From the IMG/VR virus record IMGVR_UViG_3300013383_000248: a stretch of 51,718 bases of DNA; one strand, given 5' to 3'. How positions within the stretch are numbered: the first letter of the stretch is position 1; every line of letters begins with the position of its first letter. The DNA comes from a virus. The notes below the pieces were generated by a model. It saw nothing but the letters and a program-made list of their open reading frames with translations. It did not search any database and was not told the origin of the DNA. Below, one piece after another: positions 2,639-3,986 of the stretch. The position numbers were made by a program, and so were the translations under genes.

Positions 2639-2740
2639 TTATCTTCCTCCTAATTCACATCAGGGATTTAAATGTTAATCCCACTTATATCTAATTCAAA
2701 TGGTGCGGTTGGGGAGGTTCGAACTCCCGACACCCTGCTT

Positions 2741-3475
2741 ATGGTGGTTTAAATAAGATTTGAACTTATATCTATTTCCATTGAATGTCATTATAAAGAT
2801 TAATTTCTGCTTTTTTAGTAGGTAAATTCATAGAAATACACCATTTACGAATAGCATTATCACTTACTCCATACTACTTACCTATCGCTACAAAAGACTA
2901 ATTACGAATTAACTATTTTAAAGTTTCTCTGTCTGGTCTTTCTGCTTTACGCTAAATAATATGACTACACTCTAAACAATAAGTTGTATTAGAATTTAAT
3001 AATTTGCCACATCGTTGACAATAATGCTTTTTACCTTCTCTAATTTCTTTATTCATCTATAATAGATATTCTGCCTATTCATTATCAAATAAATCCTAAT
3101 AATTAATAGGGACTTGATAATATCCAGCGTGTATTCCTTTATGACAATTAGAACAAACTAAAATACATTTTTTAGCTTCATTAATTTGACGTTCTAATGA
3201 TACCATTTTATTAGCTGATAAAGGAATTTCTTTTTCTTCAGGATTTACATGATGAAACTCTAAAGCTTCTTGGAATTTATCAAAACCACAAATACAACAC
3301 TTACTATGGAATAAAGAAATTAAATTAGTTTTTCTATTTCTAACAAAATTGCATACATTTTCTGAATTAGTTTTAGCTATAAATAACAGCTCCTTTCACT
3401 GTTATTTAATTTCTAAACCAATTCTCTTAATCTTCTTTGACCCAGTTCGAAATTGCATTACTTATGCTATTAAAT
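2741..3475 (-). mobile_element. intron (group I-like by context) inserted in tRNA anticodon loop, carrying an HNH homing endonuclease gene
   Basis: sequence between the two tRNA exons; contains a complete HNH endonuclease ORF on the same strand. Confidence 0.5.
2766..3395 (-). CDS. intron-encoded HNH homing endonuclease with Zn ribbon and C-terminal HTH (up to 209 aa; 5 in-frame TAG codons; no canonical ATG/GTG/TTG start)
   Basis: stop-to-stop frame reads ...CCICGFDKFQEALEFHHVNPEE..LVCSNCHKGIHAGY..Q..HYCQRCGKLLNSNTTYCLECSHIIQ..SFVAIGKQYGVSDNAIRKWC... continuously if TAG=Q, ending at TAA 2766-2768. Confidence 0.55.
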
Positions 3476-3986
3476 CAAAGGCAGGTGCTCTACCGACTGA
3501 GCTACAACCGCATATACGCATTTTAGAGGTTCCGGACCCTCCTGAGCAGCATCACTCAAATAAGATTTTGTCACCTAATTTTTAAAATCTTATCAAAAAA
3601 CAAACCGGTTTTATAGCTGAACCTTTAACTCCCTTTCCGTTTTTACTTATCTGTCAAGAAACAACCAAAGAGTAAGTATAAAAAGACAACATATGAAGAA
3701 TTTGTTTATAGACAAGCTTCAATCACTCGTCTGCGGTCATATTATTTTATAATCTAATTAATAATTTCAACCGCGTTCTTTAATCTGGATAATCCTATAT
3801 TCAAGTTTAAAATTATGGGCGATTATCAGTTTCCCCATTCTAATTAATCCTTCTATTGGAATTGAACCAATACCTCCGCCTCTTTCAGACAGCGTGCTTC
3901 CATTATACCAAGAAGTAATATCAATATGGCTTATTTACATAACGATGGAGCCATCAACCACCGAATAGTATGAAGTTATCAGCTTA

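Follow-up and report, generated by a model that had tools for sequence, protein, structure and literature searches.

The stretch of viral DNA analysed here, 51,718 nt long (IMG/VR record IMGVR_UViG_3300013383_000248) and called the window throughout, is part of a 192,997-bp metagenomic contig (ENA ERZ27300205 k119_95604), and megablast found no nucleotide match to it among deposited phages. Throughout this 193-kb phage contig, TAG is evidently a sense codon for Gln. Our subject is a tRNA-Lys(UUU) gene on the minus strand of the window, which is interrupted in its anticodon loop by a 735-nt insert carrying an open reading frame (ORF) for an HNH homing endonuclease. Read along the minus strand, the locus runs GCGGTTGTAGCTCAGTCGGTAGAGCACCTGCCTTT (3511-3477), then 735 nt, then TAAGCAGGGTGTCGGGAGTTCGAACCTCCCCAACCGCACCA (2741-2701), and comprises the following features.

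3477-3511, minus strand: exon 1 of tRNA-Lys(UUU), with the acceptor 5' strand, the D-arm, the 5' strand of the anticodon stem and C32-U35 (ending CCTGC CTTT).
2742-3476, minus strand: intron of 735 nt between anticodon positions 35 and 36, starting with G and ending with ACCA.
2701-2741, minus strand: exon 2 of tRNA-Lys(UUU), with U36 A37 A38, the 3' strand of the anticodon stem, the variable loop and the T-arm, closing with the acceptor 3' strand and an encoded ACCA.
2766-3380, minus strand: HNH homing-endonuclease ORF, from ATA (3380-3378) to TAA (2768-2766), 204 codons.

Run in intron mode, ARAGORN joins the two halves into a canonical 76-nt cloverleaf with the 735-nt insert in its anticodon loop, which bears out the original prediction, made by a model from the letters of the window, of a phage tRNA gene split at this point by an intron-like insert; default ARAGORN and Rfam reported no tRNA at the split Lys locus. 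Intact homologues were sought among viral contigs by exact-word matching to the core of exon 1 (labels of the form L001, L002 ... L156 denote other, mainly viral, contigs or loci compared with the window). Uninterrupted tRNA-Lys(UUU) genes lie in L001 (703-778) and L002 (8093-8168), matching the spliced sequence of the window over 59 nt at 98% and 95% identity, respectively; both have the loop CTTTTAA and are called tRNA-Lys(UUU) by ARAGORN. Because the intact homologues carry this loop, the junction CTTT/G...CCA/TAA (slashes mark splice sites) is the only option, and the anticodon of the interrupted gene, as read from these homologues, is UUU (Lys). Of the exon boundaries first proposed, the two halves and the 735 nt to be removed have stood, and the junction has moved by one base. 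The accompanying suggestion that the choice of splice site alters the anticodon (TTG, TTT or CAT) has not survived, UUU being fixed both by the intact homologues and by the intron's own structure; the TTG (Gln) reading that ARAGORN returns and the CAT reading are ruled out by the loop in L001 and L002. Nor is the split tRNA a matter of chance, for three more tRNAs of the window are interrupted in this way, as are tRNAs in over 15 further contigs.

With ARAGORN in intron mode, the interrupted tRNAs of the window come to four, of which the original prediction named one, the three beyond tRNA-Lys having inserts of 58, 60 and 65 nt.

1422-1557, minus strand: tRNA-Glu(UUC), 58-nt intron at 1462-1519, CTTTC/GTTGAAT...ATTCAAC A CCA/AA, spliced loop CTTTCAA.
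4268-4403, minus strand: tRNA-Asn(GUU), 60-nt intron at 4309-4368, CTGT/GATGACT...AGTCATC T TCA/TAA, spliced loop CTGTTAA.
6331-6470, minus strand: tRNA-Ile(UAU), 65-nt intron at 6373-6437, CTT/CCGCGTA...TATGCGG G CCA/ATAA, spliced loop CTTATAA.

Junctions in these three genes were placed by the rule that the intron extends from +1 of a 7-bp stem through NCCA, and ARAGORN, given the spliced products, returned tRNAs with anticodons UUC, GUU and UAU. An intact homologue of the Ile gene (L064 1625-1700) has the loop CTTATAA, as predicted. ARAGORN's own calls for the interrupted genes, Gln(TTG), His(GTG), Gly(TCC) and SeC(TCA), were replaced by Lys, Asn, Ile and Glu on the strength of homologues (Lys, Ile), the discriminator (Asn, where the G fits Asn and not the His(GTG) call) and the end rule. 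Two further candidates were set aside as false positives, a tRNA-Cys with a 560-nt 'intron' (1230-1869) and a motif-finder match at 36065-37109 on the plus strand, which falls in an AT-rich region with a terminator hairpin.

The inserts follow a single plan, overlooked in the original prediction, in which a 7-bp stem runs from end to end and encloses a D-like hairpin, a linker and a T-arm, the whole being closed by a discriminator base and CCA; an anticodon arm is missing. Its place is taken by the HNH ORF in the 735-nt intron, where the elements of the plan are these.

3470-3476, minus strand: acceptor-like 5' strand GATTTAA, pairing with 2746-2752 with an A-C mismatch at position 2.
3455-3467, minus strand: D-arm-like hairpin GCAT-AAGTA-ATGC, preceded by TA, the equivalent of tRNA positions 8-9.
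2753-2769, minus strand: T-arm-like hairpin ATAAG-TTCAAAT-CTTAT, overlapping the stop codon of the ORF.
2742-2752, minus strand: acceptor-like 3' strand TTAAACC, discriminator A and CCA, the last A being the last base of the intron.

In L123 the corresponding stem (GATTTAG/TTAAATC) is fully paired, with A-U where the window has A-C. A hairpin with an AAGNA loop and a covarying 4-bp stem is shared by the Glu and Asn introns and by L014, L123, L124, L153 and L156; across the family this loop is usually AAGNA and in some members is longer and resembles a D-loop, and the first base after the acceptor-like 5' strand is T, in the manner of U8, in all 12 of the D-arm-bearing members that were read. 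The T-arm has a 5-bp stem and a 7-nt loop, most often TTCAAAT, and the 3' strand of the terminal stem follows it without a gap. The Lys and Asn introns have one and the same T-arm, which in the former is ATAAGTTCAAATCTTAT (2769-2753). When the Rfam tRNA model was applied to the Glu intron (1519-1465), the score came to 38.6 bits, where 29 is the gathering score, and the alignment covered the acceptor, D and T arms and deleted the anticodon arm (18 model positions). Because this arm is absent, we describe the intron as tRNA-like and not as a tRNA.

For an analysis of covariation, 16 distinct introns were aligned by anchoring at their ends. Pairing among them reaches 99% in the terminal stem (7 bp) and the T-stem (5 bp), and compensatory changes are seen in 11 of the 12 pairs; when the partners were slid by 1-3 columns, pairing amounted to 32-45%, and none of 500 shuffles reached the observed values. 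G1-C72 is present in 15 of the 16 introns, and G53, C56, A57 and C61 are invariant. Six HNH-derived cases and four ARAGORN-derived cases from the window were chosen without a pairing requirement. The six HNH introns, picked by protein similarity (the window, L123, L124, L151, L153 and L156), all lie in tRNA-Lys(UUU), and every one of them keeps the end rule with stem sequences that differ and compensate mutually.

Relative to the outer tRNA, the point of insertion is variable (34/35, 35/36 or 36/37) and differs even among homologous Lys introns. Relative to the inner element it is constant, with the 5' splice site at +1 and the 3' splice site just after NCCA in the 22 members examined outside the Lak megaphages. 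In L116, where the outer tRNA and the intron both are without CCA, the 3' site falls directly after the discriminator, and the presence of CCA in the intron follows its presence in the outer tRNA more generally (11 cases with both, 3 with neither and a single exception, L030). The predicted splice sites are set with reference to the inner tRNA-like element and do not follow the outer tRNA. Pairing of the NCCA tail with the loop bases of the exons, as an extended helix, was looked for by hand and showed no consistent pattern.

Relatives in other phages were collected by three independent routes, of which the third was an exact look-up of more distant HNH relatives. An RNA-motif route consisted of an exact search of viral contigs for the T-arm motif, followed by a structure and ARAGORN filter; a protein route consisted of a search of viral contigs with the HNH protein, without selection on RNA structure. 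These two yielded the following.

Motif route, L014 and L116: ORF-less introns of 75 nt and 58 nt, respectively, in tRNA-Asn.
Motif route, L030 and L031: ORF-less introns of 46 nt and 60 nt, respectively, in tRNA-Ile.
Motif route, L031: ORF-less intron of 63 nt in tRNA-Lys.
Motif route: ORF-containing introns of 847 nt in tRNA-Gly(UCC) and of 906-907 nt in tRNA-Arg(UCU).
Protein route, L123: intron of 735 nt in tRNA-Lys, at the same position in different exons.
Protein route, L124 and L125: introns of 734 nt in tRNA-Lys, one base earlier.
Protein route, L126 and L128: tRNA-Lys with a minimal intron of 44 nt (an acceptor stem, a linker of 9 nt, a T-arm and ACCA), the HNH gene being free-standing about 90 nt downstream.
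Protein route, L127, L129 and L130: HNH gene free-standing between uninterrupted tRNA-Lys genes.

Three HNH relatives with 53-69% identity, found by exact look-up and not selected for structure, reside in tRNA-Lys(UUU) introns that measure 734-755 nt and share these ends. The ORFs of the Gly and Arg introns have a GIY-YIG-like start, as judged by eye, and share a C-terminal segment with the HNH protein of the window. An 847-nt intron that is near-identical by eye occupies the same position in two tRNA-Gly genes (L008/L102 and L081/L100) whose exons differ in the acceptor, D and anticodon stems, and L079 holds a 158-nt derivative of it, produced by internal deletion. At the Lys site, the intron-less alleles of L001 and L002 amount to a presence/absence polymorphism. 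Endonuclease genes that are free-standing, that lie beside an ORF-less intron and that lie inside an intron form the series expected of homing endonucleases colonising introns, and it is reasonable to postulate that the endonuclease spreads the intron at the DNA level into intron-less tRNA-Lys genes of co-infecting phages. We take the insert to belong to a family of mobile, protein-dependent introns in the anticodons of phage tRNAs that are neither of group I nor of the bulge-helix-bulge (BHB) type; that this account is right as a whole, with the splicing pathway proposed below, we consider about an even chance.

The endonuclease itself lies on the tRNA strand inside the intron, as first described, and is recognised by Pfam as an HNH protein (PF01844, 1.4e-6; PF13391, 6.3e-5) whose CxxC...HH...CxxCH pattern is kept in its relatives; of the other domains proposed, the zinc ribbon drew weak matches and the C-terminal helix-turn-helix was not called by Pfam. 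Its in-frame TAG codons number eight, and not five as originally counted, with no TAA or TGA in frame, and the description of the gene as recoded and devoid of a canonical start is upheld, the ORF opening on ATA with no ATG, GTG or TTG. A database search gave 1264 relatives. The closest (97% identity) and ten others that were inspected have the start MAKTNSENV exactly at the ATA codon (53-97% identity), and the L123 copy (88% identical) has ATG at this position. Given where the relatives start, and the ATG of L123, the window copy has lost its canonical start by a single G-to-A change (ATG to ATA), and this copy of the Lys intron may be beginning to decay. Bacterial and archaeal genomes returned only distant, partial HNH matches, for which reason the HNH family is seemingly confined to phages and metagenomes.

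All eight TAG codons fall from codon 95 onward, past the catalytic domain. In the ORF, TAG stands to CAA/CAG as 8 to 5. The TAG density of the HNH ORF is 39 per 1000 codons, compared with 1.6 per 1000 in 50 other ORFs (binomial p = 2e-9). In the preprint of Borges et al., an intron endonuclease is preferentially recoded in other recoded phages, which was read there as delayed expression. In a similar manner, the dense TAGs here probably delay translation of the endonuclease until TAG is read as Gln, presumably by way of a suppressor tRNA. No tRNA(CUA) suppressor was found within the window. A tRNA gene at 6561-6632 on the minus strand (Rfam, 45 bits) has a 6-nt anticodon loop, GUUAGU, to which ARAGORN was unable to assign an anticodon ('anticodon ta'), and it could be a suppressor-like tRNA.

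Two further features of the intron lie upstream of the ORF. The first is given here with its position.

3380-3408, minus strand: 10-bp hairpin TAAATAACAG/CTGTTATTTA, whose loop displays the Shine-Dalgarno sequence AAAGGAG; it abuts the start codon.

This hairpin first surfaced as a spurious Corona_pk3 match; its stem shows compensatory changes in L124, and it is possibly a translational control element. The second feature is the segment TTCGAACTNGGTCAAA (or close variants of it), at about 3430-3454 on the minus strand and just 3' of the D-like hairpin, which is also present in L123, L124, L151, L153, L156, L008 and L064. These are HNH- and GIY-YIG-bearing introns, and the ORF-less introns are without it; the segment could be a promoter, a regulatory site of the endonuclease or an additional RNA element.

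Introns in phage tRNAs have been noted before in one setting. Devoto et al. 2019 (PMC6784885) described 'enigmatic' introns in the tRNAs of Lak megaphages, one of which 'itself may encode a tRNA', and full-text searches of the literature gave us no description of tRNA-shaped introns in phage tRNAs besides this report, which proposes neither a rule of architecture nor a mechanism. Comparison of tRNA-Thr(UGU) in Lak-A1, which has an intron, with that in Lak-C1, which has none, resolves the 114-nt intron into a 31-nt leader and a tRNA-like unit (CTCTATG...CATAGAG C); this unit has no CCA, and its discriminator is followed directly by the 3' splice site. In Lak-B5 (L120, MK250024 124474-127950), the tRNA at 1119-1334 has the junction CTGT/...C/TAA, with the 3' splice site likewise directly behind the discriminator of the inner unit, if it is read as tRNA-Asn(GUU), an assignment that would fit better than the published tRNA-Tyr(GTA), to judge from its class I body, Asn-like D-arm and G73; an HNH homologue with 32% identity lies immediately downstream of this intron-bearing tRNA. 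The Lak introns resemble the window family in that they occupy anticodon loops in gut phages recoded from TAG to Gln and in that the tRNA-like unit ends at the 3' splice site; they differ in having a leader, in keeping an anticodon-arm-like hairpin, in being without CCA and in having the endonuclease outside the intron. By this comparison the 3' rule generalises to Lak, and the 5' rule does not. The element appears to us to be a new kind of intron that was glimpsed earlier in Lak without being characterised, for which the following mechanism is a proposal.

What these introns retain, namely an acceptor/T-arm stack with G1-C72, a D/T elbow, an unpaired position -1, and a discriminator with CCA, are established determinants of bacterial RNase P and of tRNA 3'-endonucleases. 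In the proposed pathway, RNase P would cut at the junction between exon 1 and intron position +1, leaving a 3'-OH on exon 1, and an enzyme of the RNase Z type would cut just after the intron CCA (or after the discriminator, should CCA be absent), leaving a 5'-phosphate on exon 2. Ends of this kind, held in the anticodon loop of a pre-folded tRNA, would constitute the substrate of ATP-dependent RNA ligases, and the ligase encoded by the phage would then seal the exons to yield tRNA-Lys(UUU). We regard this RNase P/RNase Z/ligase pathway as the most likely route by which the intron may be removed, and would assign it a probability of roughly 0.4-0.5. The window encodes four proteins of relevance.

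32685-34055, minus strand: ATP-dependent RNA ligase (PF09414, 3.9e-7; PHA02142 OB domain; PHROG 968 'RNA ligase', 3.7e-54, full length).
14882-15691, minus strand: RlaP-type nucleotidyltransferase of the RNA-repair-associated Pol-beta family (PF10127, 2.9e-7; PHROG 388).
13908-14729, minus strand: metallophosphoesterase, possibly for 3'-end healing (PF00149, 4.8e-13; PHROG 1649).
21894-22445, minus strand: P-loop kinase, polynucleotide kinase-like (AAA_33; PF13671, 2.4e-12; PHROG 505 'polynucleotide kinase', 2e-7).

The ligase sequence displays EKVHGTS, with the KxxG motif, and no relative of solved structure was found for it by sequence. A search for its co-occurrence with intron-bearing contigs, made with this single protein, returned only four close relatives. 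The ligase is the candidate for sealing the exons, and the RlaP-type protein, the phosphoesterase and the kinase may also have a part in intron removal.

There are observations that weigh against this pathway. Splicing is predicted here from DNA sequence, and part of the covariation set came from a finder with a pairing threshold (6 or more of 7 pairs, and 4 or more of 5). In many bacteria CCA inhibits RNase Z, and cutting right after CCA is known of only some enzymes, namely Thermotoga RNase Z and E. coli RNase BN. Sets of RNA ligase and Pnk are common as counter-defence genes of phages, and the ligase gene is 30 kb from the split tRNA, so that its presence is circumstantial. The window copy has two possibly degenerative changes, namely the ATA start and the A-C mismatch in the stem. 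Last, the Lak introns have a leader of 28-31 nt before tRNA-like +1, compared with 0 nt in 22 of 22 members outside Lak, and because of this leader RNase P alone cannot set the Lak 5' junction; the model may not generalise, or may be wrong.

Of the alternatives, the one that survives best is that a dedicated endoribonuclease of the phage or its host uses the tRNA-like fold and leaves a 2',3'-cyclic phosphate and a 5'-OH, with a phosphoesterase and a kinase healing the ends before a ligase seals them, after the manner of the heal-and-seal pathways of yeast and plants or of T4. All three of these activities, and RlaP besides, are encoded in the window, where they would be superfluous for the products of RNase P and RNase Z, and a dedicated enzyme would also accommodate the 28-31-nt leader of Lak. 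Set against this, no candidate endonuclease was recognised, and both splice sites coincide with the tRNA +1 and CCA end (22 of 22 members outside Lak), which are the points recognised by RNase P and by 3' processing; on balance we hold this explanation to be unlikely, while being the most serious competitor. An ORF at 4466-5092 was entertained as a splicing nuclease and rejected: it has no Pfam or PHROG match and overlaps a Dcm methylase gene, so that a restriction partner is the likelier identity.

Less probable again, though deserving of consideration, is that the inserts are not spliced at all. They might be selfish endonuclease cassettes or decayed remnants that inactivate dispensable tRNA genes, or the excised tRNA-like minihelix might be the product in its own right, for example as a decoy for host defences that target tRNAs. 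The lost ATG and the stem mismatch of the window copy would be in keeping with such a state. Phage tRNA genes are often dispensable, and the interrupted tRNAs (Lys, Asn, Glu, Ile, Gly and Arg) overlap the usual targets of anticodon nucleases. However, the exons form perfect cloverleaves, a loop of exactly 7 nt is regained in every lineage once the insert is taken out, and the inserts have no target-site duplications. Furthermore, old ORF-less remnants of 44-75 nt keep their helices by compensatory change while their host tRNAs stay intact, and the retention of helices and tRNAs together argues for selection on both the intron and the tRNA. We consider it improbable that the inserts go unspliced.

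A self-splicing group I intron with the HNH ORF in a peripheral loop was implied by the original prediction, and would be in keeping with the anticodon loop of a bacterial-type tRNA, the presence of a homing endonuclease and a Lys 5' exon ending in U, as in the tRNA group I introns of cyanobacteria, Azoarcus and Patescibacteria (PMC13011429). The Rfam check it called for has been run and gave no match. Scanned at the gathering score, the whole window held no intron family; at E<=10, the region 2600-3650 held no group I or group II match (RF00028 included), nor any to the hammerhead, twister, hatchet or pistol ribozymes; and at E<=1, five related intron-bearing loci (L123, L124, L064, L102 and L126) gave no match to group I or II. 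The non-coding part of the 735-nt intron comes to only about 120 nt. This copy ends in ACCA, with no terminal G, and elsewhere in the family the last bases are NCCA, TCA or the discriminator; in the Glu, Gly and Arg members, C is the final base of the 5' exon. Since no Rfam core is present, since the terminal base is A and not G, and since the members of 44-75 nt lack room for a core, the 735-nt insert is, by these features, not a group I intron; the group I reading we would call already largely refuted and give hardly any weight. The least probable of all is that the insert is removed as a BHB intron of archaeal/eukaryal type, with a splicing endonuclease making the cuts and RtcB the join, for while such introns are likewise short, protein-dependent and placed in the anticodon loop, the splice sites here are not in 3-nt bulges flanking a 4-bp helix (by inspection and RNAfold, the 5' site adjoins a 7-bp helix of the intron, and from the other strand of that helix it is 4 nt to the 3' site), the positions are 34/35 to 36/37 and not 37/38, the tRNAs are by eye of bacterial type (encoded CCA, TTCGAAC-type T-loops), and no EndA or RtcB domain was found among the 30 window proteins scanned with Pfam, the window being 27% of the 193-kb genome.

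Compared with systems already described, the RNase P/RNase Z/ligase pathway would combine familiar parts in an unfamiliar way. The group I introns of bacterial tRNAs (tRNA-Leu and tRNA-fMet in cyanobacteria, tRNA-Ile in Azoarcus, tRNA-Asn and tRNA-Asp in Patescibacteria) share the position in the anticodon region and the mobility by homing, and some have homing endonucleases; the window family differs from them in having no ribozyme core, terminal G or P1 guide, in shrinking to as little as 44 nt and in its tRNA-like termini. In mascRNA (MALAT1) and in the t-elements of plant mitochondria, an embedded mimic of the acceptor and T-arm sets the points of cleavage by RNase P and RNase Z. Cleavage there does no more than release one RNA from another, whereas the flanks of the window intron would need religation. 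Precedent for religation exists in phage T4, where Pnkp and Rnl1 reseal the anticodon loop of tRNA-Lys after it is cut by PrrC. There, as in the window with its ligase, kinase and phosphoesterase, a ligase set of the phage is matched to a broken tRNA-Lys loop; the T4 break, however, is damage inflicted by the host and not programmed removal, and the window ligase is of the PF09414/PHA02142 type and not Rnl1. Finally, Bonocora and Shub reportedly described collaborative homing, in which free-standing endonucleases act with ORF-less introns. The window family is similar, having HNH genes that are free-standing, beside a 44-nt ORF-less intron or inside an intron, and differs in that the partner intron is of group I in that system and tRNA-like in this one.

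Taken as a whole, the family may represent a class of tRNA intron that is the third in terms of mechanism, namely a mobile 'tRNA within a tRNA' that is excised by RNase P and RNase Z, sealed by a phage ligase and spread by HNH and GIY-YIG endonucleases under recoding-gated translation; this composite we hold only tentatively, at somewhat less than even odds. Were the mechanism true, it would add a third way of removing tRNA introns beside self-splicing of group I introns and the combination of BHB endonuclease and ligase, and bacterial splicing dependent on protein or ribonucleoprotein would be possible without a ribozyme intron or a BHB endonuclease. Phage RNA ligases would acquire a housekeeping role besides the mending of tRNA damage inflicted by the host, and the 'enigmatic' Lak tRNA introns, an open matter since 2019, would be explained. 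On a practical level, tRNA finders with default settings overlooked three of the window's four interrupted genes, and in the remaining one it was the intron that they reported as a tRNA; because interrupted tRNAs escape them in this manner, the tRNA inventories of recoded gut phages are undercounted and their anticodons miscalled. An RNA cassette of 44-75 nt that is flexible in sequence and defined by structure is a candidate for a programmable excision module, and the family offers a case of homing endonucleases switching between free-standing and intron-borne states around a single tRNA target.

A number of minor observations were made in the loci used for comparison. In L002 (about 7023-8041, minus strand), the homologue of the tRNA-Leu(UAG) of L001 (785-875) diverges past its first 5 nt (GCACC, followed by GTTATATT...), and there is about 0.9 kb of additional DNA between tRNA-Leu and tRNA-Val; L002 also has a tRNA with the anticodon UUA (an ochre suppressor). 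L064 has a sub-threshold twister-P1-like match (41 bits, E = 3.5e-6) and a YrlA-like match, at 829-881 and 3997-4102, both on the plus strand and outside the intron. In L102, a ROOL RNA (1-430, minus strand; 206.8 bits) adjoins the tRNA cluster of an intron-bearing phage.

Within the window, recoding is visible in several genes besides that of the endonuclease. The C5 cytosine methylase gene has a TAG right after motif I (ELFAGIGT-TAG), and with an overlapping ORF of 208 aa, which has a D...EVK motif and no family match, it lies in the tRNA cluster (4466-6056, minus strand); from their position the two are probably a type II restriction-modification pair. A MetK-like S-adenosylmethionine synthetase gene (24744-26906, minus strand) has, as read by eye, an in-frame TAG at the conserved Gln of DK..DQ.SD when set beside E. 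coli MetK, and appears, likewise by eye, to contain an intein-like insert, CVNGDTEF...VLRYNNRVFITGN followed by C. The ORF at 36351-37115, one of the few plus-strand genes, has five in-frame TAGs in about 250 codons, the highest density after that of the HNH ORF, and has a clear terminator hairpin.

In or adjoining the tRNA region, three large paralogous proteins (7032-8480, 10967-12601 and 17486-19225, all minus strand) share the motif S(I/V)HPLDY(L/M)(T/S)(M/L)S(D/E)N...W.SC(M/H) and C-terminal clusters of CxxC zinc-ribbon-like repeats; they have no Pfam match and belong only to PHROG 18912, in which function is unassigned. A 'tRNA-Phe(AAA)' at 3847-3917 on the minus strand has an odd loop, UGAAAGA, with G at position 33, and scores only 31-50 bits with Rfam, and it is kept in related phages (L123 752-822; L064 67-139). 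Between the phage tRNA genes there is also a gene of the DAHP-synthase family (1934-2638, minus strand; PF00793, E = 7e-65), an unusual auxiliary metabolic gene.

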